Source: Clostridiales bacterium (GTDB lineage Bacteria; Bacillota; Clostridia; Lachnospirales; WRAX01). From it: a stretch of 50,804 nucleotides of DNA. Shown here one piece after another: positions 3,001-37,951 of this stretch. Numbering within the stretch: the first letter of the stretch is position 1; every line of letters begins with the position of its first letter. Under the pieces are notes generated by a model. The model did not search any database. It saw only the letters and a program-made list of their open reading frames with translations, and was not told the DNA's origin. The position numbers were made by a program, and so were the translations under genes. Location: NCBI GenBank assembly GCA_031271375.1, contig JAISVU010000175.1, positions 1-50,804 on the forward strand, in the 5' to 3' direction.

Positions 3001-4423
3001 CGGGCTTGAAAGCCCCGAGGGAAGCTTCGCCATTGGTAAGAGCGGGGATATCCGGCTTACGCTGACCAATAACGGCGACAAGGCAGCCACAAATATCCGT
3101 ATCAGCGCCGCGCCTCCCGCAGGGATCGTGCCATCCTCGCCCAGCATACAATCTATTAACACGCTGGAGCCCGGGGCTTCCGTCGCGCTGACATTCTCCT
3201 TTATGCCCAGCTCCGACGCGAGAACCCAAACCTACGCTGTGGGCTTCGATGTAGAGTATGACACGGGGCGCAGCTTAACCGACGGGCAGAAGGAGCGGTC
3301 GAAGTTCTCCCAGTACGGGAGCATCGCCGCCAATGTCCCCGCCGAGTCCAGCGACGGCACGAAGAGCGTTCCCAAGATAATTCTGAGCGAGTATAAGATC
3401 ATCAGCGATAATGAAGAGAACCCGCTTATCGTACAGGCGGGCCATGAGTTCGACGTGTATCTCCGCATAAAGAACACGCACCCGACAAAGACGGTTAAGA
3501 ATATCATCGTCTCCCTCAGCGTGCCGGACAGCGCCACCGCCACAGGCACAACCGCAACAAACAACGTCTTCACGCCGGTGAACGCGAGCAACTCCTTCTA
3601 CATCGACGAAATCGAGCCGGGCGGCGAGCTGGAAAAAACCATCAGGATGTTCTGCCTTAATAACGCCGTGGGCAAGAACTATACGATGCTGGCCAAATTC
3701 AACTACGAGGATGACGACGGCAACGCCCACACCGCTACCGAGGAATTCGGAATAACCGTAAGCCAGATAGACGAACTGGACATCGAGGCGATCCCCTTCC
3801 CCGAAATGATGTATGTGGGCAGCGAGCATTACCTCTTCTTCTATTTCCGCAACACCGGGTTTGTTACGCTGCGCAACCTGAAGATAATCGCCGAGGGCGA
3901 GGGGTTTGAGTGGAACAACGCGAACCTTCTTGTCGGTCACTTCACCTCGGGCAGCTCCGATTACTTCGACGCAAGCCTTACGGCGATTGAACCCGGCGAG
4001 CATACAATCAAGATCACGGCGACATATTCCCTGGATACCGGCGAGGAAATAGAACTGGTTGAAGAAGGCGTCGTAAACGTAATGGACATGGGCGGCGACC
4101 CGTCTATGGCTGGATATAACGGTATGGGCGGCGGCCGGGTTGTCTCGATGTCCGGCGGCGGCGGTGTGGTGATTGTTGACGGCGGAATGGGCGGCGATAT
4201 GATGGGCGGCGGCTCCGGCTTTGACCCGATGACCGGGGAGCCTATCGACGGCATGGGCGGCGGAACCGAAAGCGGGTTCGTGGGCTGGGTTAAAGGCGTG
4301 TTTAATTACTTTAACGCCAATGTATGGCCCTGGGTCGTAACCGGCGCCGTAATCGCCGCAGGCGTGTCCGTCGTGCTTGTTCGCCGCATTAGGCGGAGAA
4401 GGGCCTTCTCGCTGGAGGATTAG
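2..4423 (+). CDS. Giant repetitive cell-surface protein (10 or more CARDB/COG1361-like Ig-fold modules, Gly/Met-rich linker, C-terminal TM anchor); the 5' end runs off the window
   Basis: The frame is open from nt 2, with no stop before the listed GTG at 80. A module signature recurs: G-x-S/T-G-x-F-x-L-T-L/V-x-N-x-G-x-x-x-A-x-N-I/V ... Y-x-V/I-x-F-x-V-x-Y-E-N-G ... F-S-x-Y-G-S. Its period is about 375 nt between ~1430 and ~3330, with more divergent copies on both sides. A hydrophobic helix VWPWVVTGAVIAAGVSVVLV followed by RRIRRRR lies at 4322-4402. Confidence 0.75.
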   Translation, partial: TEVVVSNPSGYIITDIALSGSGGGGVVVTPITSMIPILRPGESEVVPVHLNALNVATGGSGADCTITAVYQYSADGETNMQPGTASGFVAVYVTDKPQAPGPATPTPVPTPVPERAADLVMTSPASYITTKPGESVNIGIVMQNNHKTNIASSLVLTTAMAVDFKTEFVRKSPTVIRPGEKDTFYFIVTPSANCKPGYYDVPFNYQYQGPDSKTYKGTGTVKIQVEESPVSQPSLVIDGFGTSADVINAGDSFEVFANITNMGSGVAESVEVTASGFTTQTISLSGSDTAILQPIGIGLSSKATFNLSANETMAAGAYPIKFTVTYKNSAGEEKTFESQYYINVAYEGGAAKRAQLDTYTFEMTKGPLEVGDTITVNYVFVNNGSAPAENIRVTARNPEGVLVPTSDNIQLVDELIEDDAYQMIFTFTPTEAAKSQTYMIEIETKYDTGRKNADGSVETLTFVKNSGAYVSNPEEEEEENRAGTAPRARLTVTDMTGPAESLGIGETGVIQMTIRNSGNRAATNIKVDGSATGEALAGLEHSSVAVQTISELRAGESQTIEFSYTPGPSAKSKTYTIPYAIDYENGLFTTDERRVTESFSAYGSISVLGADDDGAAANVIVSAFKSPEGSYDVGESGSFTLTLVNNGDKAAKNIKVSAQPEAGIVPSLTGNIQSVTILEPGAEYQMTFAFMPASSAKTQAYSVGFTVEYENGRQTSDGQNERMTFTQYGSFSASVAGTIDDGRRASLSLQSIVNPEGIIGPDGRGIFELTIENTGQKAASNIRVSVANLPGGLTYASSSARTINGIAAGASATVSFELKPNASAVTQTYTPEFTITYENGGLAENGRHETESFSAYGSMEVNIPPTAGAKLVVSRLSAPTGEYNVGSVGTFSLTVTNSGDKPASNVKLTAQIPEGLVPSSPSVLTETGLAPGDSAEFSFSVMPSSQARTQFYAIGFQVDYENGLAGADGRPETASFSQYGSMDVKTDIGDDGTSANLSISGLESPEGSFAIGKSGDIRLTLTNNGDKAATNIRISAAPPAGIVPSSPSIQSINTLEPGASVALTFSFMPSSDARTQTYAVGFDVEYDTGRSLTDGQKERSKFSQYGSIAANVPAESSDGTKSVPKIILSEYKIISDNEENPLIVQAGHEFDVYLRIKNTHPTKTVKNIIVSLSVPDSATATGTTATNNVFTPVNASNSFYIDEIEPGGELEKTIRMFCLNNAVGKNYTMLAKFNYEDDDGNAHTATEEFGITVSQIDELDIEAIPFPEMMYVGSEHYLFFYFRNTGFVTLRNLKIIAEGEGFEWNNANLLVGHFTSGSSDYFDASLTAIEPGEHTIKITATYSLDTGEEIELVEEGVVNVMDMGGDPSMAGYNGMGGGRVVSMSGGGGVVIVDGGMGGDMMGGGSGFDPMTGEPIDGMGGGTESGFVGWVKGVFNYFNANVWPWVVTGAVIAAGVSVVLVRRIRRRRAFSLED

Positions 4424-4446: not shown

Positions 4447-5838
4447 ATGAGCGCTTTCGACACATTAAGCATGGCTCTTAAAAATCTGTATAAACGCAAG
4501 CTGCGCACCTTCCTTACGGTTCTTGGCGTTATCGTGGGCTCCTGCGCAATCATAATCATGATTTCGCTGGGCCTCGCGATAAACAAAAGCTTTGAGGACC
4601 GCATGATGACCACGCCGAACGCGACGACCATCATGATATATAACTGGGAGGTCTACAACGGACAGGACAAGGTATCGCCCGCCGTTGACGACGCAGCGCT
4701 TGCCAAGATCGCCCAGATACCGGATGTCGAAGCAGTCACGCCCTGGCTGAATAACTACGTTGCGGTCAAGGCGGGCCGCTAGTCCGCCGAGGTTCAAATA
4801 ATCGGCGTTATCCCCGAAGCCCTGCCCGCTATGGGCATAACGCTGCAGGAAGGGCAGTTCCTGCAATCAAAGGACGAATGGGGCATGATGTTCGGCTCCG
4901 CGGTAGCGCAGAACTTTATGACCGCAAGGGAGCGCAATAACTGGTACATGCAGATGAACCGGGATCCGAACGCGAAGCCCAAGGTTGATTTGATGAATGA
5001 CCGTTTGCAAGCCTCCGCCGATTACAGCTTCGGCATGGAAACCAATACCCCGGTTGAGGAAGGCTACGAAGGATATGAGGGCGAGAGCCAAAACGCCCAG
5101 CCGCCGGTAAAGCCTCATAACGTCAACGCCGTCGCCATTATGGCCCCCGGCGACGATTATGAGACGACCAGCGCGGCGTTTATGAACATTAAAACCGTGC
5201 AGCTGCTTATGAAGGAACGCGAGGAGATGTGGGGCCGTCAAGCCCGGGAATATAACGGTTATGAGGTAACGCGGATTAAAGCGACGACCGTCGCCGCTGT
5301 TGAAAATATCACGGCGGCCTTGCAGGATATGGGCTTTTCAGAGAATATTATTCAAACCCCCACGTCTTACATCTCCGAGCTAAAGGGGACGATGGCCAGC
5401 CTTCAGACGCTTCTTGGGGCTATGGGCATTATCTCCCTCTTTATCGCTACGATCGGCATATCCAACACTATGGTAATGTCGACGGTGGAGCGCACGCGCG
5501 AGATCGGCGTAATGAAGGTTATCGGCGCATCCCTGCGGGATATCCGCAAGCTCTTCCTGCTGGAGGCTGCTATAATCGGCTTCCTGGGCGGTCTGCTGGG
5601 CGTCGGGGTGAGCTATATCGCCTCGTTTATACTAAACAACAACGGCCAGTCCCTGTTCGCCTTCATGGACGCCTACAGCTATTACGGCGAGATGATGTCC
5701 AGCGACGTTTCAATCATACCCATATGGTTAAGCGCGGCTTCGCTCGGCTTCGCCGCCATAATCGGGCTTATAGCGGGGTTCTTCCCGGCCCAGCGCGCCA
5801 CTACGATAAGCGCTCTGTCGGCTATAAGGGCGGAGTAA
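4447..5838 (+). pseudogene. MacB/FtsX-family ABC transporter permease interrupted by one in-frame TAG (4780-4782)
   Basis: ORFs 4447-4782 and 4831-5838 share one frame. The N-terminal TM1 reads RKLRTFLTVLGVIVGSCAIIIM. The sequence across the stop (AGR*SAEVQIIGVIPEALPAMGITLQEGQFL) reads like a MacB periplasmic domain. The C-terminus has an FtsX domain (TREIGVMKVIGASLRDIRKLFLLEA) plus TM helices. An AAGGTGG RBS precedes ATG 4447. Confidence 0.8.
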
Positions 5839-5851
5839 GCGGTAAAAAATA

Positions 5852-6487
5852 ATGGGTGAATCGATGATACGTAACCCGGTTAAATTATACATAAAATCCG
5901 ACACACTTACCCCTCGCATCGCTCTCCACGATAAATACAGCGTCAATAAATACGGCTTCGCCAACTGGGTCTTTGACCAGTACGTTTTAAGAGAAGGCAT
6001 GAACGTGCTGGAACTGGGCTGCGGGACGGCGTCGGGCTGGGCCGGAAGGGTTACTCTGCCCGTTGGCATAAACGTGTGCCTTTCGGATTTCTCGCCGCTT
6101 ATGGTAAAGAAGGCTGAAGACGCGCTGGGGGATAACCCCGCTTTCTCGTTTAAAGAGATTGATATACAGGATATCCCATTTAAAGGGCAGTCATTTGACT
6201 TGGTTATAGCGAATCATATGCTGTATCATGTGCCGGACATAAACAAGGCCCTGTCGGAGGTTTCACGAGTGCTTAAACCATCGGGCCGGTTCTGCGCGAC
6301 GACGATCGGCTGGGATTCACTAAAAGAATTGAGCGATATGTACCGTAAGATGGACTATATTAATTCATACAACGATATCCCCGCAAATGCTGAGGAAGAG
6401 CTGCGCGGTTATATCAACGCCCAATTCATTGACGGGGTTTTCAAGATACGCAAAACACAGGGAATGTTCATCTCATCCCTCATTTAA
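5852..6487 (+). CDS. Class I SAM-dependent methyltransferase
   Basis: It has SAM-binding motif I VLELGCGTASGW, an acidic loop CLSDFS, and the motifs LVIANHMLYHV and LKPSGRF typical of Methyltransf_11/25-type enzymes. Confidence 0.75.
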   Translation: MGESMIRNPVKLYIKSDTLTPRIALHDKYSVNKYGFANWVFDQYVLREGMNVLELGCGTASGWAGRVTLPVGINVCLSDFSPLMVKKAEDALGDNPAFSFKEIDIQDIPFKGQSFDLVIANHMLYHVPDINKALSEVSRVLKPSGRFCATTIGWDSLKELSDMYRKMDYINSYNDIPANAEEELRGYINAQFIDGVFKIRKTQGMFISSLI

Positions 6488-6875
6488 CATATTCACGCCA
6501 ATTAAGGTCGCCCTGCTCCAGAGCCAGAATCAGCACCTCGGCGGTCGCCAGGTTCGACGCGAGGGGAATATTGTGCGTGTCGCAAAGCCTCGCCACCTCG
6601 TTAAAATCCGATTCCGGCAATATACGCACGTCCGGGTTGCACAGGAACACAACCAAGTCTATGTCGTTATGGGATATCTGCACGCAGAGCTGCTTCTCGC
6701 CGCCCACATGGCCGGGCAGGTATTTGTTCAGCACAAGCCCGGTGGCCTCCTCGATAAGCCAGCCCGTAGTACCCGTGGCGAACACATTGTGCTTACTCAG
6801 CACATGCCTATAGGCGATGCAGAAGTTCTCCATCAATATCTTTTTACTGTCATGGGCCACCAGCGCTATGTTCAT
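6480..6875 (-). CDS. mgsA: Methylglyoxal synthase
   Basis: The 131-aa product from the internal ATG at 6875 starts MNIALVAHDSKK and contains ATGTTG and HNDIDLVVFL..D..HNIPLASNLATAE. The listed 221-aa ORF start would overlap rodA and is rejected. Confidence 0.9.
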   Translation of the reverse strand: MNIALVAHDSKKILMENFCIAYRHVLSKHNVFATGTTGWLIEEATGLVLNKYLPGHVGGEKQLCVQISHNDIDLVVFLCNPDVRILPESDFNEVARLCDTHNIPLASNLATAEVLILALEQGDLNWREYVK

Positions 6876-6898
6876 ATGCCACTCCCGATCCTTATCTG

Positions 6899-8056
6899 TT
6901 AATCTGTAAACAGCGTATTCTTTGTCCTCTTCATGCCTATATTGATAACCATTCCGATTGCGGCAAGGTTTATCCACATGGAACTCCCCCCGGCGCTTAC
7001 GAATGGCAGCGGTATGCCCGTATTGGGCAAAAGCCATGTCGTTACCCCGATGTGGACGAAAGCCTGGGCTCCTATCATTGCCCCTACCCCAGAGGCTATA
7101 AGCCTGCCGGAAAAGCTCTCGGCCCTCCAAGCCACATAGAAACACTTAGCCACCAGCGCAAGTATCACAAGTATAACCAATACACAACCAGCGAACCCAA
7201 ATTCGGCGCCGATTATAGAAAAAATAAAGTCGTTGAAGGCCAGGGGAACCGTCACCGTGTTCTTAAACAACCCCTTGCCCACAAGCTGCCCGGAACCGAT
7301 AGCCTTCACAGACTGCTCAGACTGGTACAGATCGTTCGGGTCAACCTCGCCGATGCCGAAAAAGGGCTTTATGCGATCCTCAAGCTGATAGGTCAAAATC
7401 TTGTCTATGATAATCGGATCTTCCCTGTTGAGGTCAAACCACATAAAGGCCGCGAGAGGCACAATCACAGCGAGGCCTATCAGGATATACTTATATTTAA
7501 CGCCGCCAACGAATAATAATACCAGCAAAATAATCGTCTGCAGTATGCTTGCGGACAGGGCGGGCTCCAAAAAAATCATAACAATCGGCAGAAGCCCAAA
7601 GGCGAGAACCGATAAAAGTATAAGTATATTATTGATTCTTTCGCCGATTTTGTCAATGTATTTGGCTAAGAAAATCAACATGAAAATCTTGGCGAACTCC
7701 GACGGCTGGATGCTGAACTCCCTCGATCCCAGGTTAATGAAAAGCCACCGGGCCGTGGAGGGCGGCGGCGGCTGTAACGCCTCGGAAAGCAGCAGCAGCC
7801 CTATCATTATTACATATAACGGAATATAGAGCTTGCACAGCACCTCGAAGTCGATAAGGGACACCGTAACCATCACGACGAAACCGGACACAAGCCACAT
7901 TATCTGCGCATTGAATGTGGACGACATAACACCGTCGCCAAGTCCGGTGGCGCTGCCGATAACCAGCACCCCAAAACCCGAGAGCACCAGCACAAGAGCC
8001 GCCAGCGCATAGTCATAAACGGACAGTATCCGTCTTATACGCTCGCTTATAATCAA
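6899..8056 (-). CDS. rodA: FtsW/RodA/SpoVE-family peptidoglycan polymerase (RodA by context)
   Basis: It is a polytopic membrane protein with SEFAKI, FIFSIIGAEFGF and PLPFVSAGGSS motifs. It lies directly after minCDE in the mre/min cluster. Confidence 0.85.
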   Translation of the reverse strand: MIISERIRRILSVYDYALAALVLVLSGFGVLVIGSATGLGDGVMSSTFNAQIMWLVSGFVVMVTVSLIDFEVLCKLYIPLYVIMIGLLLLSEALQPPPPSTARWLFINLGSREFSIQPSEFAKIFMLIFLAKYIDKIGERINNILILLSVLAFGLLPIVMIFLEPALSASILQTIILLVLLFVGGVKYKYILIGLAVIVPLAAFMWFDLNREDPIIIDKILTYQLEDRIKPFFGIGEVDPNDLYQSEQSVKAIGSGQLVGKGLFKNTVTVPLAFNDFIFSIIGAEFGFAGCVLVILVILALVAKCFYVAWRAESFSGRLIASGVGAMIGAQAFVHIGVTTWLLPNTGIPLPFVSAGGSSMWINLAAIGMVINIGMKRTKNTLFTD

Positions 8057-27661: not shown

Positions 27662-27869
27662 GGGAGTCTTTCGTAGAGCGCGGCCTCCTGGACGCGCCGA
27701 AGCTGGCATTCAATTCAAATCCCGGCGCGTTGCGGGTCAAGCCCGCAATGACGACCTGCGCCCTACATAATTCCCTCGGATATCTTTATGTCGTTACGGG
27801 TTGACTTTACAGGATTTTTATGGTATTTTGTAGTTGGACAAGCGGATAAGCAATGCGAGCGGCTTGTCA

Positions 27870-27991
27870 CAGACGTAGCCGGGCGGGGTCATCCCGCCCG
27901 GCGGGAACATAAGTGGCAAAACGTTGCAAATTCGCGCCTGCAACGGGCGGCATTACGCCGCCCCTACGGGTTGTTGGCATTAAGCGGATTA
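27870..27991. repeat. Copy 1 of a ~120-nt hairpin-rich direct repeat
   Basis: The sequence CAGACGTAG-CCGGGCGGGGTCATCCCGCCCGG...GTGGCAAAACG...GGGCGGCATTACGCCGCCCCTACGGGTTGTTGGCATTAAGCGGATTA aligns base-for-base with 28012-28131, with roughly a dozen substitutions and a 2-nt indel. Confidence 0.8.
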
Positions 27992-28011
27992 GTAATGTGA
28001 TCGGATTGGCG

Positions 28012-28131
28012 CAGACGTAGGGGCGGGGTCATCCCGCCCGGCAGGAGAATAAGTGGCAAAACGGCGCAAATACGCGCCTGCAGCAGGCGGCATAACGCCG
28101 CTCCTACGGGTTGTCGGCATTGAGCGGATAA
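28012..28131. repeat. Copy 2 of the ~120-nt hairpin-rich direct repeat
   Basis: See copy 1. Copy 2 begins 142 nt after copy 1. A degenerate partial third copy is visible at about 27794-27855 (TTACGGGTTG ... TTGGACAAGCGGATAAGCAATG). Confidence 0.8.
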
Positions 28132-28142
28132 GGGGTGGCGGC

Positions 28143-29234
28143 GTGGCAGATAAAATCACAAATGAGGAATTCTCGCGGCTTCTTGAGCGGAAGGCAGAAA
28201 AAGGCGACGCAGAGTTTATATATCGTGTGGCGCAGTGTTATCACGAGGGGTATAATGTCGATAGAAACTATGATGAATCTATAAAATAGGCAAGATTATC
28301 AGCAGAAAAGGGCTACGCCCCGGGCCAGTATATATTGGGAAGGCATTATTATTTGGGGCATGGTGTTAAAACAGATTTTAACGAGGCTGTCAAGTGGTTT
28401 AAAATGTCTTCAGATCAAGGCGATTGTAACGGACAGTTTTTGCTTGCATGGTGTTATATGCACGGTCATGGAGTTTCTCAAAATGACCGCGAAGCCGAAC
28501 GTTTATATAAACTATCTTCGGATCAGGGTTATCCTATCGCACAAGCCTCTCTTGTACGGATGTATCTGAACCTAGGAGAATCATTATGTGAAGCTAACAA
28601 GTCCATTGACAATATTAACACAGCAAAAGAATACTATGAAAAAGCATTAAAAGCTGCCAAAGACTACAACAGATATAGATGGGATGTAAAAGCAAGAATC
28701 GACAAGGGATTAGCTATGACAAACACCAAACTCGAAGAATTCAAAAAAGAAGAGGCAATAGAAGCCCATATTTCACCACGCAAGGATATCTTTATCAGCT
28801 ACTCCCACGAAGATATGCTCTACAAGAACGAGCTTCTCAAACATCTGAAAATGTTCAAATACATATATAACAATACAAAGTGGTGGGATGATTCACAGAT
28901 AGAACCAGGCGCAAAATGGAAAGACGAGATAAAAGCGGCTATGGAGCGAGCCAAAATTATCATTATTATGGGCTCGGTTAGTTTTTTTGCATCTGAATTC
29001 ATACAGGACGAAGAAATTCCTAAAATCCTAGAAGCCGCCGAAGAAGATGAGGCGGTAATACTGTGGCTGCCCGTCGGCACTTGCCTTTATGAAGATACCT
29101 TTGTAGGAAAATACCAGGCGGTATCAGACCCTTCCAAGCCGCTTGAGGATATGAACCCAAGCGACCGCAACAAGGTATATACCGCCCTGCTTAATCAAAT
29201 TAAAGATATATACGGCATTTCTACCGAGGCTTAA
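28143..29234 (+). pseudogene. Sel1-repeat (SLR) + TIR-domain protein, frame interrupted by one in-frame TAG (28287-28289)
   Basis: ORFs 28053-28289 and 28335-29234 share one frame. The probable start is GTG 28143, preceded by an AAGGGGTGG RBS, because the upstream 30 codons merely translate the repeat. Three to four Sel1 repeats are present (AVKWFKMSSDQGD, AERLYKLSSDQGY). The TIR domain spans ~28779-29231 (DIFISYSHED, SVSFFASEFIQDEE). Confidence 0.8.
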
Positions 29235-29335
29235 ACGGCAGCGCAGCCTTTACCTTCCTCTCCATCGCAGCCCCAAAGAACACGGCAGAAATCTCAACTG
29301 AATTAGTTTCCCGTCTCCGGTCATACTAACATCGG

Positions 29336-30688
29336 GTGATTTACATGAAGAGAATAATTGCCGCGCTCTGCGCGGCGCTGATGGTGTGGCCGGGGAGCAT
29401 CTTCAACGCGAGGGACAGGCGGATCGTTGAGCGTCTGAACAGCGACGCGATATACGACAACATCCATATCTCCGGGGTGCCTGTGGGCGGCCTGACTAAA
29501 GACAAGGCAAGGCAAGCCCTGTGCGAACGCTTTCGCGAACTGGAAAACCTGACGGTGACATTAACCGGGGCAAAGGAACCCGTGAGCTTCACGCTGCGGG
29601 AGCTGGGCGGGTTTTACAACGCGGACAGGGCGATTGATGCGGCCTGGAACTACGCGAGGGAAGGCGGAAACGCCGAACGCGTCCGCCAGCTGAACCTCAT
29701 CGCCGAGACCCCTCTCAGCCTTGAGGCCGACTTTATTATTGACGGCGAAAGGCTTGATTCCGTCATTGATTCCCTTTCCAAACGGCTGTACAGCCCTCCA
29801 ACGGAACCGTCCCTGCGTTTTAATAACGGCGTTTTCAGCGTTTCGGATCCTGTATGCGGGTCTGAGGTGGACGCGGCCCGGTTGAAAAAGATGCTTATGG
29901 ATATTTTGACGGCGCGGGAATCCGCGAGTGCGGAGCTGCCGCTGACCGCTGTGAATCCCAAGCTCGCGCCTTCCGACCTGTGGCGGGCGACAAGCCTTTT
30001 GGGTTCCTCCTCCACCGATATGAGCGCAAGCTCTGAAAACCGCGTGAAAAACCTGGCTTTGGCCGCTTCCAGGCTTAACGGTGTAATGATTATGCCGGGA
30101 GAGGTGTTTTCCACAAACGCCGCGCTTAACCCGGGAACGGGCGATAACGGCTACCTGCCCGCGGGTTCGTACCTTAACGGCGAGGTGGTTGATTCCGTTG
30201 GCGGCGGCGTTTGCCAGGCGGCGACGACGCTGTACATGGCCCTTCTGTGCGCGGAGCTGCCCGTAGTGGAACGCCAGAACCATTCGATGCCCGTCGCTTA
30301 CGCGGATTACGGCTTCGACGCAACGCTGGCCGAAGGGTTAATAGATTTGAAATTCAAAAACACAACGGAGCTGCCCGTTACATTAGAATGTTTTATCGCG
30401 GACGGACGGCTGCGGGTTAATATCTACGGGGAGGAAACCAGGCCGTATAACCGCACGCTGCGTTTCGAGAACGAGCTGGTGGAGGTAATGGCCGCGCCGG
30501 AACAGGAAGTGATCAGCGACCCGCTGCTGCCAAAGGACGGATTTGTCGTAGAGGTTAAAGCCAGGGACGGATATGTCTACAAACTATATAAATTGGTGTA
30601 TGTGAATAATGCGCTTGTGAACCGCGTACAGATTAATACCAGCACATACAAGCCCGTCCGGGGAAAGGCGCGCGTCGGGATACGGTAG
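29336..30688 (+). CDS. VanW family protein
   Basis: It has an N-terminal signal/TM segment, and the VanW core contains GGGVCQAATTLYMA. The start may instead be ATG 29345. Confidence 0.8.
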   Translation: MIYMKRIIAALCAALMVWPGSIFNARDRRIVERLNSDAIYDNIHISGVPVGGLTKDKARQALCERFRELENLTVTLTGAKEPVSFTLRELGGFYNADRAIDAAWNYAREGGNAERVRQLNLIAETPLSLEADFIIDGERLDSVIDSLSKRLYSPPTEPSLRFNNGVFSVSDPVCGSEVDAARLKKMLMDILTARESASAELPLTAVNPKLAPSDLWRATSLLGSSSTDMSASSENRVKNLALAASRLNGVMIMPGEVFSTNAALNPGTGDNGYLPAGSYLNGEVVDSVGGGVCQAATTLYMALLCAELPVVERQNHSMPVAYADYGFDATLAEGLIDLKFKNTTELPVTLECFIADGRLRVNIYGEETRPYNRTLRFENELVEVMAAPEQEVISDPLLPKDGFVVEVKARDGYVYKLYKLVYVNNALVNRVQINTSTYKPVRGKARVGIR

Positions 30689-30755
30689 ATATGATTGACT
30701 TGTCCTCCCCTTTGCTGTAAAATAGTAATTAAGAAAGGTGCTGGGGAGGATACGG

Positions 30756-31931
30756 ATGATCTATAAGGCATTCAAGGATTTACAGCTGTCATGGCTTGGC
30801 ATGGGCAATATGCGCCTGCCAGTCGTCGGCGAGCGCGGTCCCATCGACGAAAAGCTGGCAAGCGAGATTATTGATTACGCCTATGCCAACGGCGTTAATT
30901 ATTACGACACCGCCTATATGTATCACGGCGGCCATTCCGAGGAGTTTATAGGCAAGGCCCTGGCGCGGTATCCCAGGGACAGCTTTTACCTCGCTACGAA
31001 GATGCCGGGGCATATTATGCGCCGCGCGGGGGATACGATGGAAGTCGGCGGCACGATGATTGCTAAGAAGACGATATCCGGCCCCGCCGACGTGTTTGAA
31101 GAGCAGCTGGAGAAATGCGGCGTCGATTATTTCGATTTCTATCTGCTGCATAACCTTTCAGAGAGCTCTTACAATTTATACGCCGACGACGAGCTGGGTA
31201 TTATCGAGTATGTCCTTGCCCAGAAAAAAGCGGGGCGCATACGTCACCTGGGCTTCTCCGCCCACGCCTCGGCCGCGACTATCGACAAGTTCCTTAGTAA
31301 ATACGATTGCTTCGAGTTCGTTCAGATTCAGCTCAATTATATGGACTGGATGCTGCAGGACGCCAAAACAAAGTATGAGGTTATTACGAAGCACGGCCTT
31401 CCCGTTGTCGTTATGGAGCCCTGCCGGGGCGGCAAGCTGGCGGCCCCCGGCGAAGCCGCAACCGAGATACTCAGGCAGGCAAGGCCCGGCGACAGCCCGG
31501 CGGCCTGGGCGTTCCGGTTCATACAGTCCCTCCCGAACGTAACCGTAGCCCTCAGCGGAATGACGACGCTGGAGCAGCTTAAAGAGAATGTCGCTCTGTT
31601 CTCCAAAGACGATCCGCTTACTGAGGAAGATAAAACCGTATTGCAAAAGGCGATAGCGGCAATGGCCAGTATCGTGCCCTGCACCGCCTGCCGCTACTGC
31701 TGCGACGGCTGCCCGCAGAAGCTGGATATTCCCAAGCTGATCGGCTTGAACAACGAGGCGTCGTTCTCGCTGTCGTGGCAGGTGACAAACGCCCTGGGCG
31801 CTATGAGCGAAGCGGAAAAACCTTCGGCCTGCGTCTCCTGCGGGGAATGTTCAAAAATCTGCCCGCAGGGCATTGACGTACCCGGCGTGCTGCAAAAATT
31901 CGCCGCAAGGTTAAACAGCGCGGCTTCCTGA
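30756..31931 (+). CDS. Aldo/keto reductase with C-terminal 4Fe-4S-binding extension
   Basis: It has the motifs GMGNMRLP, YDTAYMYHGGHSEEFIGKAL and GFSAH. Two Cys clusters are present: CTACRYCCDGCP and CVSCGECSKICP. A GGAGG RBS lies 6 nt before ATG 30756. Confidence 0.8.
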   Translation: MIYKAFKDLQLSWLGMGNMRLPVVGERGPIDEKLASEIIDYAYANGVNYYDTAYMYHGGHSEEFIGKALARYPRDSFYLATKMPGHIMRRAGDTMEVGGTMIAKKTISGPADVFEEQLEKCGVDYFDFYLLHNLSESSYNLYADDELGIIEYVLAQKKAGRIRHLGFSAHASAATIDKFLSKYDCFEFVQIQLNYMDWMLQDAKTKYEVITKHGLPVVVMEPCRGGKLAAPGEAATEILRQARPGDSPAAWAFRFIQSLPNVTVALSGMTTLEQLKENVALFSKDDPLTEEDKTVLQKAIAAMASIVPCTACRYCCDGCPQKLDIPKLIGLNNEASFSLSWQVTNALGAMSEAEKPSACVSCGECSKICPQGIDVPGVLQKFAARLNSAAS

Positions 31932-31948
31932 TATACCGCAGCCCCCAT

Positions 31949-31984
31949 CTCGGTTCCGGCCCCCGGTTCCGAGTTCTTTTTTCT
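31949..31984 (+). terminator. Rho-independent terminator after the aldo/keto reductase gene
   Basis: The hairpin CTCGGTTCCG-gcccc-CGGTTCCGAG has a 2x2 internal mismatch and is followed by TTCTTTTTTC. Confidence 0.5.
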
Positions 31985-31985
31985 A

Positions 31986-32015
31986 TTGATTAACATTTAT
32001 AGTATGTAGTATAAT
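31986..32015 (+). promoter_or_regulatory. Sigma-A-type promoter candidate for asp23-yloV-recG
   Basis: TTGATT (31986-31991), an 18-nt spacer and TATAAT (32010-32015) lie 32 nt upstream of the GTG start, with a GGGAGG RBS. Confidence 0.4.
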
Positions 32016-32047
32016 AAGACTTGGACTTTTGTATGGGAGGTAGTTAA

Positions 32048-32404
32048 GTGGCCGGAGGCGTCCGAAACCAATATGGAGAGATAGCGATAGGCAACGAGGT
32101 AATAGCGCGGATAGCGGGCCGGGCAGCGATGGAGTGCTACGGCGTCGTCGGCATGGCCGCGAAGAATGTGAAAGACGGCATCGCAAGGCTTTTGAAGAAG
32201 GAAAGCCTTACAAAGGGTATACGCCTCACAGCGGAGAATAACGAGTTGAGTATCGACCTCCATGTGATAATGCTGTATGGCACGAGCATTTACGCCATCT
32301 GCAACTCGCTGATCGACTCGGTCAAGTATAAAGTGGAGCAATACACAGGATTAACCGTAAAAGCCGTCAATGTTTTTGTGGACGGTCTGCGGGTGGAGAA
32401 TTGA
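32048..32404 (+). CDS. Asp23/Gls24 family envelope stress protein
   Basis: It contains GEIAIGNEVIARIAGRAAMECYGVVGM, is 118 aa long, and has the conserved position before yloV-recG. Confidence 0.85.
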   Translation: MAGGVRNQYGEIAIGNEVIARIAGRAAMECYGVVGMAAKNVKDGIARLLKKESLTKGIRLTAENNELSIDLHVIMLYGTSIYAICNSLIDSVKYKVEQYTGLTVKAVNVFVDGLRVEN

Positions 32405-32423
32405 TAACCCGGGAGGGCTGTAA

Positions 32424-34067
32424 TTGAAAAAGTGGAGGCTTAACGGGCGGATGCTTAAAACGGCGGTAATAGCCGGGGCCAACGCCCTTTACGAAAGAAA
32501 ATCGGAGATCGACGCGTTGAACGTCTTCCCTGTCCCGGACGGTGATACGGGAACCAATATGTACCTGACCGCTCTGTCCGCCGCGATAGACGTGGAAAAG
32601 CTCCCCAGGGAAGCGACGGTTCATGCCGTCGCGAAGGCCGCGGCTACAGGGGCTTTACGCGGGGCGCGGGGCAATTCAGGGGTTATCCTGTCGCAGCTGT
32701 TCCGCGGCTTCGCAAAGGGTTTTGAGGGCATGGAATCCGCAAGCTGCGAAAACCTGGCCTCGGCGCTGAACGCCGCGGTTGAAACGGCATACAAAGCTAT
32801 AATGAAGCCCAAAGAAGGCACGATCCTCACTGTGGCCAGGGAGACGGCGGGGAAGGTTCAAGAGCTGCATAATGAAGGCGTCGCTCCGTGCAAGCTGTTT
32901 GAGCAAAGCATCACATACGGGCAGGACATTTTGTCGAGGACAAAGGAAATGCTGCCGGCGCTCAAAGCCGCCGATGTGGTGGACGCCGGGGGTATGGGTT
33001 TTATTACGATTATTGAAGCCGCTTACGAGGCCCTTGCCGGGCGGAAGCCGGATCAGCCCGTTCTTGAGATTGCCGATCATACGGAACGTTCAGACGAGGT
33101 AAGCGGCGCCTTCAGGGCTCTTAACCGCTTCTCAACCGACACGATTGAGTTCGCTTACGACACGGAGTTTTTTATCTTTACCGATGGCGCGAGCGAACCC
33201 TTCGAAGAGGCGTTCGTAGAATACCTGGACACAATGGGCGATTCCATTGTCACCGCCGCCGAGGAGAATTACATCAAGGTTCATGTTCATACAAACAGAC
33301 CCGGCGCGGTGCTGGAAAAGGCGCTAACAATCGGAGCGCTGGACCGGGTGAAGGTCGAAAACATGCGTTTCCAGCATGAGGAAAAGACGGCGGAAGCGGC
33401 GGCGTATAAACCAACCGGTTTCATCGCGGTTGCCGGTGGCGAGGGATTCAAGGAGATATTCCGGAGCCTGGGGGCGGATTATGTCATTGAAGGCGGCCAG
33501 ACGATGAACCCCAGTTCCGAAGACTTCCTCAACGCCATCTACTGCGTCCCCGCCAAAGAGATCGTTGTTCTCCCAAATAATAAAAACGTAATACTCGCGG
33601 CACGTCAGGCAGGGGAACTATGCAAGGAAAAGACCATCTATGTCATTCCGACGCGTTCGATGCCGCAAGGCCTCACGGCGCTTATGTCCTATATACACGA
33701 TGAAGGAACCGCCGAAAACGCCGCCAATATGGAAGATGCAATAAATAATATCCATACGGCCCATATTACCACCGCGGTACGCAGCACGGTTATCGACGGC
33801 ATCAGCGTGACAAAGGGCGACGCGATAGGCATTGTGGACGGCGAAGTGACCCTTAGCCATAAAAACATGAACGAGGCGGCGCGCCGCACCGCCGAAAAAC
33901 TCATAACGGACGATACGAGCTTTGTTACCATATATTACGGCGAGGACGCGAAGCCGAAGGACGCGGACAAACTAATGGAGTATATTAAGAAGCGCTATCC
34001 CGCCTGCGAGGTTGAGGTTCAAAGCGGCGGCCAGCCCGTGTACCGCTATATCCTGTCCGCCGAATAA
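32424..34067 (+). CDS. yloV: DAK2 domain-containing protein YloV (TTG start)
   Basis: It has the DAK2 signature LNVFPVPDGDTGTNM. The C-terminal DegV-like half and the synteny with recG support the call. Confidence 0.85.
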   Translation: MKKWRLNGRMLKTAVIAGANALYERKSEIDALNVFPVPDGDTGTNMYLTALSAAIDVEKLPREATVHAVAKAAATGALRGARGNSGVILSQLFRGFAKGFEGMESASCENLASALNAAVETAYKAIMKPKEGTILTVARETAGKVQELHNEGVAPCKLFEQSITYGQDILSRTKEMLPALKAADVVDAGGMGFITIIEAAYEALAGRKPDQPVLEIADHTERSDEVSGAFRALNRFSTDTIEFAYDTEFFIFTDGASEPFEEAFVEYLDTMGDSIVTAAEENYIKVHVHTNRPGAVLEKALTIGALDRVKVENMRFQHEEKTAEAAAYKPTGFIAVAGGEGFKEIFRSLGADYVIEGGQTMNPSSEDFLNAIYCVPAKEIVVLPNNKNVILAARQAGELCKEKTIYVIPTRSMPQGLTALMSYIHDEGTAENAANMEDAINNIHTAHITTAVRSTVIDGISVTKGDAIGIVDGEVTLSHKNMNEAARRTAEKLITDDTSFVTIYYGEDAKPKDADKLMEYIKKRYPACEVEVQSGGQPVYRYILSAE

Positions 34068-36061
34068 TGTTCCGCATTGACGACCCTGTAACGGTGTTAC
34101 GAAGCGTCGGTCCCGCGAGGCTCGGTACGCTGAGACGTTTGAGCCTTTGCACCATCGGGGATTTGGTGAACCATTTCCCCAGGGACTACCGGGACAGGAG
34201 CGTAATAACGGCGATAAGGGATTTGGAACCCGGAATCCCCGCAACGGTTGTGGCGGAGGTTAAAAAATCACCGGATGTCCGCATAAAACATAAGATGACA
34301 ATAACCACGGCGGAGATATGCGACAATTCCGGAGTTATGGATATTACCTGGTATAACCAGCCCTTTATGAGAAACGCGCTGAAACCGGGGAAATACGTCT
34401 TCTCCGGCGAACCTTCGTGGTTTCACGGGCGCATGACGATGGAGCAGCCGGAATACGAGGCAGTCACAGGCAAGGAACTGCTGTCTGGGGCGCGTATCGT
34501 TCCGGTCTATCCGCTTACAGAGGGCATATCCCAGAAGATGATGCGGATGTGGCAGAAGGAAGCCCTGGACGGCCTTCCGCCCATTGAAGAAACCCTGCCA
34601 GCCGGGCTTTTGCGTGAATATAATTTAATGAATAGGGACGCGGCAATACGCAATATACATTATCCCGAAAGCCCGGCGGCCTTTAACAGCGCCAGGCGCA
34701 CGCTGGCCTTCACCGAGCTGTTCAACCTGCAAGCCGCCTTGTTCCGCGCCAGGGGCGTTGTTAAGAAACGCGAGGGGATAAGGCTTGACGATATAGATAT
34801 CAGCCCCTTCACCGAGCGCCTGGGGTTTACCTTCACGGGCGCGCAAAGCAAGGTTCTTGCCGAGATACAGGCGGACACCTGCTCGGGCTATATGATGAAC
34901 CGTTTGATCCAGGGAGACGTGGGTTCCGGCAAGACGGCGGTGGCAATGGCCGCAATGTACATGACCGTAAAAAGCGGCAGGCAGGCGGCGCTTATGGCCC
35001 CGACGGAGACGCTGGCCCGCCAGCATTACACTTACATGAAGGAGCTGTTTGAGCCGCTGGGCATATCCGTCGCGCTCCTTACAGGCTCCCTTGCCGCGAA
35101 AACGAAGAACGCGGTTAAGAAAGACCTGGCCTCGGGTATTGTCGATATAGCGGTAGGCACCCACGCCTTGATTGTGGACAACGTGTCGTTCGCCGCGCTG
35201 GGCCTTACGATATGCGACGAGCAGCACCGCTTCGGCGTGCGCCAGCGCGGGGCGCTGAACGAAAAAGGCCCTGCTCCGCATGTGCTGGTAATGACGGCGA
35301 CGCCGATCCCGCGGACTTTGGCGTTAATCCTTTACGGCGACCTGGATATATCCGTCATCGACGAGCTGCCCCCGGGCAGGACGCCGATAAAGACCAACGC
35401 GGTAACGTCGCAGTATCGCCAGCGTATATTTAACTTTATCAAAAATCAAACGGACGAAGGCCGTCAGGCCTATATCGTCTGCCCTGTGATAGAAGAGAAC
35501 GAGAGGGATTTGCAATCCGTAAAGACCTACGCCGCCGGGTTCGCCGCCGCCACGGGCCTAAGCCCGGCCATCCTGCACGGAAGGCTTAAGCAAGATGAAA
35601 AAAACGCGGTTATGGAGGGTTTCTCAAGCGGGGATATCCCCGTATTGGTGGCCACGACGGTTATTGAGGTGGGGATTAACGTCCCCAACGCTTCGATCAT
35701 GCTGATTGAGAACGCCGAACGCTTCGGCCTGGCCCAGCTGCATCAGCTCAGAGGCCGCGTAGGGCGCGGGGCCGCCCAGTCTTACTGCGTATTGGTTACG
35801 GACGCATGGAACGAGATAACGAAAAAGCGCATGAAGGCAATGACCTCCACCACCGACGGTTTCGCCTTGTCAGACCTTGACCTGAGCATCCGGGGCCCCG
35901 GCGATTTCTTCGGCACGCGCCAGCACGGCCTGCCCGAAATGCGCGTCGCCAACCTATACAAGGACGGGGATATATTGAAGGAGGCGCAAGCGGCGGCGAG
36001 GAAATATTATAGAGAAATAGAGACGGGAGACGAGAACCAAGAACTCAGATGGTTACTTTAA
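34067..36061 (+). CDS. recG: ATP-dependent DNA helicase RecG
   Basis: It has a wedge domain, Walker A GDVGSGKT, DEQHRFGV, and motif VI QLHQLRGRVGRG. Confidence 0.95.
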   Translation: MFRIDDPVTVLRSVGPARLGTLRRLSLCTIGDLVNHFPRDYRDRSVITAIRDLEPGIPATVVAEVKKSPDVRIKHKMTITTAEICDNSGVMDITWYNQPFMRNALKPGKYVFSGEPSWFHGRMTMEQPEYEAVTGKELLSGARIVPVYPLTEGISQKMMRMWQKEALDGLPPIEETLPAGLLREYNLMNRDAAIRNIHYPESPAAFNSARRTLAFTELFNLQAALFRARGVVKKREGIRLDDIDISPFTERLGFTFTGAQSKVLAEIQADTCSGYMMNRLIQGDVGSGKTAVAMAAMYMTVKSGRQAALMAPTETLARQHYTYMKELFEPLGISVALLTGSLAAKTKNAVKKDLASGIVDIAVGTHALIVDNVSFAALGLTICDEQHRFGVRQRGALNEKGPAPHVLVMTATPIPRTLALILYGDLDISVIDELPPGRTPIKTNAVTSQYRQRIFNFIKNQTDEGRQAYIVCPVIEENERDLQSVKTYAAGFAAATGLSPAILHGRLKQDEKNAVMEGFSSGDIPVLVATTVIEVGINVPNASIMLIENAERFGLAQLHQLRGRVGRGAAQSYCVLVTDAWNEITKKRMKAMTSTTDGFALSDLDLSIRGPGDFFGTRQHGLPEMRVANLYKDGDILKEAQAAARKYYREIETGDENQELRWLL

Positions 36062-36147
36062 GCAAGACACGGCTTCAGGACACGCTGATGACGATTGTAT
36101 TATGGAAAGTATATTAACGTTTTAGCAACTTTAAGGAGGTATAAACT

Positions 36148-37314
36148 ATGCAAGATGTTTTTATAACAAAGATTCATATTGATAAAGTCCGGCATTTGGA
36201 GAATCTTGATATTGATTTATCCGCTCCTGGTGAGGAGCGAAAGCATCTTATACTCACTGGGAAGAATGGCAGCGGGAAGACGAGCGTGCTCTTGTCATTG
36301 AAGAATCTCATTTTTTCAGGGCAATATTATAAAGATGTGAACTATATTACTTCACCTAATGATTCAAACCATATGTCACGTATTAAATCTTTGATGCAAG
36401 TTTATAATCAATATGTGCCAAACATCAAGGTAAATTTTTCAAATGAAACCAATGCCTTGATGGAAACTATATTTATTTATATACCTGTTAACCGTATGGA
36501 TTTGGCGACACCAACCTCTATAGAGCAAATTGATATGCAAAGCAAGGTTGAAATTGTGAATAGCTTAAGCATGGATTTTTATAAATACATGCTTAACCTT
36601 GATTATCAGCGAAGTGGTGCTTTTGTTGATAAAAACACAGAGTTATTAGGTAAGCTCAACATGTGGTTTAACCGATTTACTGAAGCGGTGCGTGAGATAT
36701 ATAACTGTAATGATCTTAATATCCGCTACTCAAGAGACAAATTACGTATTGAGTTTGATATCCCTGGGCGTGAGCGTTTTTCACTTACAGAAATGTCTGA
36801 CGGTTATAAGGCGCTGCTAAATATATATATGGAATTGCTTATGCGTTTCGGAGATAATGAGGGTAATATTGACTTTGATTTAGCTGCCGTTGTGCTTATA
36901 GATGAATTAGAAACCCACCTCCATGTCGAACTTCAAAAGCGCGCGCTTCCGTTCCTCACTAAAATGTTCCCCAACGCCCAATTCATTGTGACGACACACT
37001 CGCCATTTGTGATAACATCGTTGCCTGACGCCGTTGTATATGACTTGGAAAAAAGAGAGACCCTGGAAAATCCCAGCCTGTATTCATACGAATCCGTAGT
37101 GGAATCCTTTCTTGACACAGGTTCTTATTCCCAGGCGCTTCGCGATTACTTCAACAGATACAAGGAACTGAGCTTCAAAGAGCGGACGCCGGAGGAAAAT
37201 GAGGAATTCTTGCGGGCCAAGACCGAGCTTGAACTGATGTCCCCCGCGTCTAAGGAGCTGTATATCGCGTTCACAAACCTTGAAAAGGAACGAAAGGCTA
37301 AAAAGAATGGTTAA
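36148..37314 (+). CDS. Soluble ABC/SMC-type ATPase (AAA_15/AAA_21-like), PtuA-like
   Basis: It has Walker A GKNGSGKTS (K44), the signature-like MSDGYKALL, Walker B VVLIDELETHLH and H-loop VTTHSP. It has no TM segments. An AAGGAGG RBS lies upstream. The gene is AT-rich, with 18 G+C in the 60 nt at 36148-36207. Confidence 0.8.
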   Translation: MQDVFITKIHIDKVRHLENLDIDLSAPGEERKHLILTGKNGSGKTSVLLSLKNLIFSGQYYKDVNYITSPNDSNHMSRIKSLMQVYNQYVPNIKVNFSNETNALMETIFIYIPVNRMDLATPTSIEQIDMQSKVEIVNSLSMDFYKYMLNLDYQRSGAFVDKNTELLGKLNMWFNRFTEAVREIYNCNDLNIRYSRDKLRIEFDIPGRERFSLTEMSDGYKALLNIYMELLMRFGDNEGNIDFDLAAVVLIDELETHLHVELQKRALPFLTKMFPNAQFIVTTHSPFVITSLPDAVVYDLEKRETLENPSLYSYESVVESFLDTGSYSQALRDYFNRYKELSFKERTPEENEEFLRAKTELELMSPASKELYIAFTNLEKERKAKKNG

Positions 37315-37951
37315 ACTCACGAAAAGCCCCCTGCCGGACGGGATTGTGATAAACTCTGCGGACGTTTACAGGTCAGGGATTGCATTTGAAACATTAATCA
37401 ATGACTGCCACCAGAAATGTTACATATGCGAGGATAAGCCCACAAGCATAAATGTGGAGCATATCGTTGCACATAAAAGCGATCCGGCGCTTAAATTTGA
37501 CTGGGATAACTTATTTATCGCCTGCTGGCATTGCAACAATATTAAAAGTACAAAGTACGACGATATAATCAATCCGGTATTGATCAATCCCGAAGAATGT
37601 ATCGCTTTGTCTGTCAGGATATCCGATAATTTTATAGAAGCCGTACAGGTTATACCGTTAAAAACGGATGCCCAAGCCTTGAAAACAGCCGAACTGCTGG
37701 AGATTGTATATAACGGCGGTTCAACCGCGATGAAGAAGGTTGAAAGCGCGAATCTGCGCAACGAGCATTTACTGCCCGATATCAAGCTGTTCCTCAAATA
37801 CATAAGCGATTATATCGATGAACCGGATTTGGGATACGACAGCATTATCAGGCAAGAAATCAGCTGTTCGGCCAAGTTCGCCGCGTTTAAACGCAGAATA
37901 ATCGCCGAAGATACCGAATTGTCAGTAGCATTCGCCGATGCGTTAGCATAG
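37307..37951 (+). CDS. HNH endonuclease (TIGR02646-like), PtuB-like
   Basis: The HNH motif reads CYICEDKPTSINVEHIVAHKS...WDNLFIACWHCNNIKS. ATG 37307 overlaps the ATPase stop (ATGGTTAA). An alternative upstream ATG lies at 37280. Confidence 0.8.
   Translation: MVKLTKSPLPDGIVINSADVYRSGIAFETLINDCHQKCYICEDKPTSINVEHIVAHKSDPALKFDWDNLFIACWHCNNIKSTKYDDIINPVLINPEECIALSVRISDNFIEAVQVIPLKTDAQALKTAELLEIVYNGGSTAMKKVESANLRNEHLLPDIKLFLKYISDYIDEPDLGYDSIIRQEISCSAKFAAFKRRIIAEDTELSVAFADALA

Follow-up and report, generated by a model that had tools for sequence, protein, structure and literature searches.

Does an in-frame amber codon in a gene for a putative toxic effector represent damage, or could it be a device by which the cell senses infection? 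This question is raised by a gene in contig JAISVU010000175.1 of assembly GCA_031271375.1, a whole metagenome-assembled contig of a "Clostridiales bacterium", all 50,804 nucleotides of which constitute the window analyzed here. The gene lies on the forward strand at 28143-29234, encodes Sel1 repeats followed by a C-terminal TIR domain, and contains one internal TAG codon (Table 1). A first-pass annotation of the sequence had left two options: (a) a recently inactivated toxic effector, or (b) an effector made at full length only when UAG is suppressed. In our analysis, option (a) was the best-supported reading. We consider it moderately probable that the locus is a single-gene islet gained by horizontal transfer, that the intact family is a self-contained abortive-infection defense, and that the copy in this genome is a nonsense null allele.

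Translation agreed with the first-pass description of a frame that is open except for the TAG at 28287-28289: its 364 codons run from a GTG start to TAA at 29232-29234, and the conceptual protein has 363 amino acids when the internal TAG is read as a residue. Every peptide string quoted in that description (DIFISYSHED, SVSFFASEFIQDEE, ESIK*ARLSAEKG, EAVKWFKMSSDQG, and EAERLYKLSSDQG) was located in the translation. A search of 5.8 billion protein clusters yielded 13 intact homologues with the same Sel1-then-TIR order (326-365 amino acids, 38-43% identity), which cover 92-99%, mostly 96-99%, of the repaired protein and come from uncultured Clostridia/Oscillospiraceae. At the column of the TAG, all 13 have Trp, which belongs to a K-W pair that is almost invariant in the Sel1 motif; thus, a single G-to-A change of TGG explains the stop, as had been proposed, and TGG-to-TAG, the simplest origin of this codon, is also the likely one. 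The 48 codons before the stop were gapless and co-linear with the N-termini of the homologues (E = 1e-12 and 2e-13), and their identity to the homologues (42-44%) was equal to that of the remainder of the protein. Beyond this TAG, the gene has no further stops or frameshifts. Since the part before the stop is as conserved as the rest and no other stop or frameshift is present, the break appears to be recent. The initiator Met of the homologues falls on GTG 28143 in the family alignment. Homologous coding sequence is therefore found on both sides of the stop, and a conserved sense codon is one base change away, which is the pattern of a nonsense pseudogene. As one part of the moderately probable reading given above, the copy in this genome would be a recent null allele or young pseudogene, and the stop would be damage. 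The public annotation MDR1704371.1, which has 299 amino acids from an internal TTG start, conceals this nonsense mutation.

Pfam searches of the protein, with the stop read as Trp, detected Sel1 (PF08238) in three stretches (92.1 bits, 1.7e-26, cut-off 30.7) and TIR_2 (PF13676) at residues 216-308 (39.3 bits, 1.1e-9, cut-off 28), so that both modules named in the first-pass annotation scored above the Pfam cut-offs. PADLOC assigned residues 215-341 to ThsB1, a ThsB-type TIR (6.5e-16), and the Pfam family ThsB_TIR scored slightly under its cut-off (7.7e-4). Sequence matches of the TIR domain in the PDB included PdTIR (3h16, 1.1e-3) and AtTIR (3jrn, 2.1e-3). NCBIfam and PHROGs matched the Sel1 half only, and none of their named families covered the whole protein. 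The full-length protein was modeled by AlphaFold2 using the family alignment as input and X at position 49, with a mean predicted local distance difference test score (pLDDT) of 84. In this model, the order of strands and helices in the TIR domain was as expected, with strands at residues 215-219, 270-277, and 305-310, and the pLDDT was 79-94 across most of the domain; a single-sequence model of the TIR domain only, made with no alignment, had a pLDDT of 42. The estimate of three to four Sel1 repeats was borne out by the three Pfam stretches and the four helix pairs of the model, the fourth being degenerate, with low confidence at residues 145-152 and Pro131 where other members have Trp. The top Foldseek matches in the PDB were Sel1 proteins (from Oxalobacter, LceB, SEL1L, and HcpC, with E down to 2.5e-8); the Sel1 half accounted for most of what the whole-model search found, and TIR-only structures were absent among the 50 matches listed.

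The Ser/Phe/Glu region of NAD-cleaving (nicotinamide adenine dinucleotide-cleaving) TIRs is conserved, as first suggested: S278, F281, S284, and E291, in the region S-x2-F-x2-S-x6-E, are invariant across the 14 family members. E291 aligns with the Glu in the WPQKE-L segment of PdTIR 3h16, although the neighboring E290 leaves the register ambiguous by one residue. We infer from these alignments that E291 is the catalytic Glu of the NAD-cleaving type.

By analogy with other TIR systems, the intact Sel1-TIR family most likely acts as an abortive-infection defense. Comparison with TIR-II, SpbK, and the solenoid-inhibited SARM1 suggests the following mechanism. The protein would be cytoplasmic, with an N-terminal Sel1 solenoid, a long linker helix, and the C-terminal TIR domain. 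The TIR domain would be kept inactive by the repeat module, which would also bind a phage protein; the binding would cluster or oligomerize the TIR domains, the clustered domains would hydrolyze NAD+ through E291, and the loss of NAD+ would stop the growth of the infected cell. In this genome, translation from the native start would end after 48 residues, leaving a null allele.

Sel1 repeats belong to the tetratricopeptide repeat (TPR)-like class. The first-pass annotation knew of no described single-protein system of such a build, a statement that the literature has overtaken: both TIR-II (PMC11350192) and SpbK (PMC12847820) have been validated. TIR-II, reportedly more widespread than any other of the new TIR systems, can be a single protein with TIR and TPR that confers protection on E. 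coli and depends on the active-site residues of its TIR domain; its TIR and TPR are fused or on two proteins, it is also found in phages, and approximately 30% of TIR-II systems carry an ATPase domain (PMC11350192). Judged by domain content, the Sel1-TIR family resembles TIR-II in having TIR and TPR-class repeats in one polypeptide with no obligatory partner; carriage by phages is a second likeness, a Sel1x9-TIR gene having been found here on a Mu-like phage contig. However, the Sel1-TIR family has no ATPase domain, its repeats are of the Sel1 type, the protein has 363 amino acids, its members come from uncultured Clostridia, and the copy in the window is broken. The family itself is small and uncharacterized, and its architecture is of the already validated kind with TIR and TPR-type repeats.

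SpbK of Bacillus subtilis is a single-gene TIR NADase that acts by abortive infection and becomes active once it is clustered by a phage portal protein (PMC12847820). It resembles the window gene in architecture, in that a non-TIR N-terminal part precedes a C-terminal TIR, and its activation by clustering is the mechanism that we propose for the intact Sel1-TIR family, although SpbK has something other than a Sel1 solenoid at its N-terminus. In SARM1 and TIR-1 of animals, an alpha-solenoid that serves as an auto-inhibitory sensor likewise lies N-terminal to the catalytic TIR, and C. elegans TIR-1 was a weak whole-model Foldseek match (rank 42 among the 50 listed, E = 7.7e-3, template-modeling (TM) score 0.33). 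However, SARM1 has ARM repeats and a SAM oligomerization domain, neither of which is present in Sel1-TIR; the similarity to SARM1 is one of logic, not of demonstrated descent. BcTir/BcTpr of Bacillus cereus likewise pairs TIR and TPR-repeat proteins for an anti-phage immunity that involves NAD+ consumption, but it consists of two genes, with the NADase in the N-terminal domain of the TPR protein (bioRxiv 10.1101/2023.05.26.542521), whereas a single gene with the canonical TIR Glu is found here. With respect to Thoeris, the TIR domain of the window gene scored best against ThsB models in PADLOC, but no ThsA (SIR2/SLOG, Macro, or TM effector) was found beside the window gene or beside any homologue locus examined. 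We know of no characterized ThsB protein with Sel1 repeats. Because no ThsA is present, membership in Thoeris was rejected.

The base composition of the gene is that of an islet. The count of 23 G+C among the 60 nt at 28801-28860, given in the first-pass annotation for an AT-rich gene, was exact, and the gene as a whole has 41% G+C versus 58% and 55% in its 4-kb flanks. Homologues in hosts with approximately 40% G+C have a G+C content like that of their hosts, which fits the transfer of the window gene from a low-G+C donor. The flanking genes are of the housekeeping kind (Table 1), and the gene stands alone between the AmmeMemoRadiSam pair and the VanW-family gene with no partner, as had been described; a scan of all genes at 20193-37951 found none that is ThsA-like and no other effector gene apart from an intact Septu pair. 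The intact homologues, too, are single genes, and across the six contexts examined no conserved neighbor gene was found. The Septu pair is likewise a compact AT-rich islet, inserted amid housekeeping genes right behind one for a recG-like helicase. Such an islet amid G+C-rich housekeeping genes shows that the genome acquires small foreign defense cassettes. Synteny of the flank was examined through the radical SAM gene, whose nearest relatives (71% identity at best) lie on tiny contigs; the one usable contig was not syntenic. Horizontal acquisition of the Sel1-TIR islet, which the composition points to, is a further part of the moderately probable reading.

Several points weigh against this reading. 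The TAG allele is known from one assembled contig only, with a single entry each in NCBI and IMG. Furthermore, the window copy is the most divergent member of the family: it departs from the others at 8 of 43 columns on which these all agree, one departure being W131P of the fourth repeat, whereas each other member deviates at 0 to 4. These deviations could reflect a different specificity, or a decay older than the recent event proposed here; this copy is also the outgroup among the family sequences, however, so that they are not clear evidence of decay. A clear defense context was seen for only some of the homologues, and the enzymatic and antiphage roles that we infer for the family come by analogy. 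In addition, the TIR match is strongest to ThsB-type models, and the role of ThsB-type TIRs in Thoeris is to produce a signal, not to deplete NAD+.

The best-surviving alternative to a null allele, which we nevertheless regard as unlikely, is that the TAG stems from an error of assembly or consensus calling, or from a minority allele caught in the metagenome-assembled genome (MAG), and that the population carries an intact, functional gene. The single known MAG contig is consistent with this, as are an open reading frame (ORF) that is otherwise flawless, the retention of all family-invariant residues but W49 and six others, whose changes are mostly conservative, and the presence of a second single-base stop, in an ABC permease gene, within the same 50 kb. 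However, only approximately 4% of random substitutions create stops, so that if errors had produced two of them within 50 kb, the error rate would be near 0.1% and numerous further errors would be present. Frameshift-type breaks, which are usual in error-prone assemblies, were not found in the contig; ORF 6387-6902 has no family match and looks spurious. Because stop-creating substitutions are few and the contig is free of frameshift-type damage, an error is the less likely explanation. Copies of the gene from the same species were found neither in the protein clusters nor in the JGI metagenomes, where no relative exceeded 43% identity, nor among the matches listed for the GTDB species genomes. 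The latter contain at least two full-length members of approximately 42% identity, both in Oscillospiraceae MAGs, and one of these loci (L001), when translated, had no internal stop.

Rather improbable, but still to be weighed, is the possibility that the intact family is not a phage defense and serves instead in NAD-derived signaling to a distant effector or in interaction with a eukaryotic host; the status of the TAG would be unchanged. Several homologues lie amid housekeeping genes with no defense neighbors (Table 1), the best PADLOC match is to the signal-producing ThsB-type TIRs, and the Sel1 proteins of Legionella and Helicobacter, whose structures are among the Foldseek matches, are host-interaction factors. 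On the other hand, the N-terminus of the window protein (VADKITNEEFSRLLERKAEKGD) has, as read from the sequence, no hydrophobic signal-peptide stretch, and no ThsA-type partner was found near the members examined. One member lies beside a restriction-modification system and another in a prophage immunity region. The latter, the Sel1x9-TIR gene of the Mu-like phage contig, is immediately 3' of an S24/HTH repressor gene and has 31% G+C versus 44% in the rest of the contig; such a position is typical of prophage-borne defense genes. Among the homologues, closely related Sel1 modules also occur joined to other domains, namely HNH, protein kinase, trypsin-like, caspase, and M48 (examples are P0029, P0036, P0039, P0083, and P0060). 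Fusion to varied effector-type domains is a pattern characteristic of conflict systems, which argues against a non-defense role and suggests that the Sel1 module is a swappable sensor cassette. In annotated phage and plasmid records, no full-length family member was found, the matches being to the Sel1 half only, and the matches of a profile search with the family alignment (1.84 billion representatives) were swamped by long multi-repeat Sel1 proteins.

There is a small chance that a shorter product, either the 299-residue protein from TTG 28335 or one from ATG 28404, is functional and possibly deregulated. The 299-residue ORF is intact and retains two to three repeats and the whole TIR domain, and re-initiation is conceivable at this TTG, 46 nt past the TAG. 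However, inspection of the sequence found no recognizable ribosome-binding site upstream of either TTG 28335 or ATG 28404, while GTG 28143 is preceded by AAGGGG at the right spacing. In all 13 homologues, the start corresponds to GTG 28143, and the shorter start is used by none, except for one cut by the end of its contig. Furthermore, the loss of repeat 1 and half of repeat 2 would be expected to uncap the solenoid, and a deregulated NADase would probably be counter-selected.

Option (b) of the first-pass annotation proposed that the UAG is a gate, the toxic effector being made at full length only with a phage-borne amber-suppressor tRNA, so that the stop codon senses infection; in a weaker variant, low natural readthrough of UAG could hold the toxic effector at a safe, very low dose. 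If the proposal were true, a stop codon would serve as a sensor for code-switching phages. The stop is indeed early, 5' of all functional modules, in an ORF that is otherwise intact and encodes a potentially toxic effector, and TAG-recoding phages with suppressor tRNAs occur in gut communities (PMC10879173, PMC11210395). In addition, both broken genes of the contig are amber. A scan of all same-frame ORF pairs one stop apart found only two genuine breaks in the contig. The second, noted in the first-pass annotation as a TAG-broken gene at 4780, is indeed a MacB/FtsX-type permease gene interrupted by TAG, with MacB_PCD in the piece 5' of the TAG and FtsX in the piece 3' of it; the gene comes after one for a 1447-residue CARDB/NPCBM_assoc surface protein (80-4423). 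The TAG column of the permease has Tyr in both detectable homologues (38% identity, distant, n = 2), and the solved MacB structures were uninformative at this column.

The two stops appear to be unrelated. With the codon usage of the contig, TAG makes up 35-41% of the possible nonsense substitutions in the TIR gene and approximately 57% in the permease gene, and the joint chance that both nonsense hits are amber is approximately 0.2. A common cause was rejected: one stop is a transition of a Trp codon and the other a transversion at a Tyr position, and thus they share no mutational signature. The general explanation that the first-pass annotation saw in the second TAG is therefore weak, TAG being a frequent nonsense outcome. 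Because the residue types at the two ambers differ, a single suppressor would not restore both proteins. Gating would be senseless in a housekeeping-type permease. An alternative genetic code or pyrrolysine (Pyl)-type decoding was also rejected, because TAG is the terminator of 8 of the 39 likely genes in the contig. No tRNA and no Rfam element was found in the 50.8-kb contig.

The identity of the residue that recoding inserts is also unfavorable to gating. In the documented TAG-recoding phages, TAG is read as Gln, whereas Trp is the reading given to TGA (PMC11210395, PMC10879173); suppression would thus put Gln at the invariant structural Trp49. A gate under selection would be expected to lie where substitutions are tolerated. 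None of the 13 homologues carries the stop, and the full-length GTDB loci match nearly the whole query. A literature search found no published proposal of stop-codon-gated defense effectors. Taken with the ordinary use of TAG as a terminator, these results make gating by UAG very improbable.

Table 1. Features of the Sel1-TIR locus, of the rest of the window, and of related loci
Feature	Location	Strand	Basis or context
Conceptual full-length Sel1-repeat/TIR gene	28143..29234	+	Translation, Pfam, PADLOC, co-linearity with 13 homologues
Fragment before the stop, 48 codons: N-terminal helix and most of Sel1 repeat 1	28143..28286	+	Homologue alignment
In-frame TAG, codon 49	28287..28289	+	Trp in 13/13 homologues, K48-W49 motif
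ORF of 299 residues from TTG, annotated as "TIR domain-containing protein" MDR1704371.1	28335..29234	+	Public annotation
Four Sel1-type helix pairs, residues ~22-57, 58-93, 94-129, and 130-172	28206..28658	+	AlphaFold2, Foldseek, Pfam
Long linker helix between repeats and TIR, residues 179-209	28677..28769	+	Secondary structure of the model
TIR domain, residues ~214-357, alternating strands and helices	28782..29213	+	Pfam, PADLOC, PDB matches, model
Glu291 codon, putative catalytic-Glu position of NAD-cleaving TIRs	29013..29015	+	Invariant alignment column
Shine-Dalgarno-like AAGGGG, 7 nt 5' of GTG 28143	28130..28135	+	Sequence inspection
Tandem repeat, 140-nt unit, 2.1 copies, GC-rich	27840..28132	.	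Tandem Repeats Finder (TRF)
AmmeMemoRadiSam pair: LigB/AMMECR1 fusion and radical SAM enzyme	25420-27661		Upstream
VanW-family protein, then aldo-keto reductase, FakA-like kinase, and helicase	29336 onward		Downstream
Intact Septu: PtuA (3.8e-85) and PtuB (HNH; 1.1e-45)	36148-37951		40-44% G+C, 7 kb from the Sel1-TIR gene
MacB/FtsX-type ABC permease	4447-5838		TAG 4780-4782 inside the periplasmic core domain
Homologue P0009			Beside type I restriction-modification system and TniQ gene
Homologue P0008			Beside integrase and FtsK-like gene
Homologue P0005			Beside a helicase cluster that PADLOC does not recognize
Homologue P0007			Alone amid housekeeping genes
P0018, 546 residues	L130 7001-8641		Alone amid housekeeping genes
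Sel1x9-TIR, 625 residues	L112 (IMGVR_UViG_3300027864_000668) 5473-7350		Mu-like phage contig (Portal_Mu, Gp27, DUF3164)

Several further observations concern the surroundings of these genes. The 140-nt repeat array ends 10 nt before the start codon of the Sel1-TIR gene and forms strong hairpins (RNA fold z = -5.8). It belongs to no Rfam family, is unique in the contig, and has no copies in the 111 loci examined. A sigma70-like site was seen at 27801-29, just 5' of the array. The repeat could be an element like a repetitive extragenic palindrome (REP) or a miniature inverted-repeat transposable element (MITE), a leader RNA, or an insertion scar. Elsewhere in the window, the ORF at 20805-21512 on the reverse strand (235 amino acids) is, with 37% G+C, the most AT-rich of the contig; its only match, to ADP-ribosyltransferase exoenzymes, is weak and below threshold (E = 9e-4), PADLOC gave none, and it may be another foreign toxin or defense gene.

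Two of the related loci have peculiarities of their own. The domain order of P0018 is apparently reversed, TIR being followed by Sel1; this gene lies between mnmA-like and FAD-oxidoreductase genes, and the same arrangement is found on a second, shorter contig. Beside the P0009 gene (L001/L002), there are two small peptides of the FibroRuminTarg family (L002 489-810), a radical SAM enzyme, and a UvrA-like ABC ATPase, the last of which PADLOC matches to mad3 (1.4e-41). This set may be a peptide-maturation or defense cassette.

If the intact family works as we propose, a Sel1 sensor joined to a TIR effector in approximately 350 residues would be added to the single-gene, NAD-depleting phage defenses. 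The source of the family is the poorly sampled gut Clostridia, and relatives are carried by a Mu-like phage. Being small, the protein would lend itself to structural studies of the control that a helical-repeat sensor exerts over a TIR enzyme. The broken copy in the present window, read as a recent null allele, would illustrate how quickly acquired effectors can be lost or silenced.

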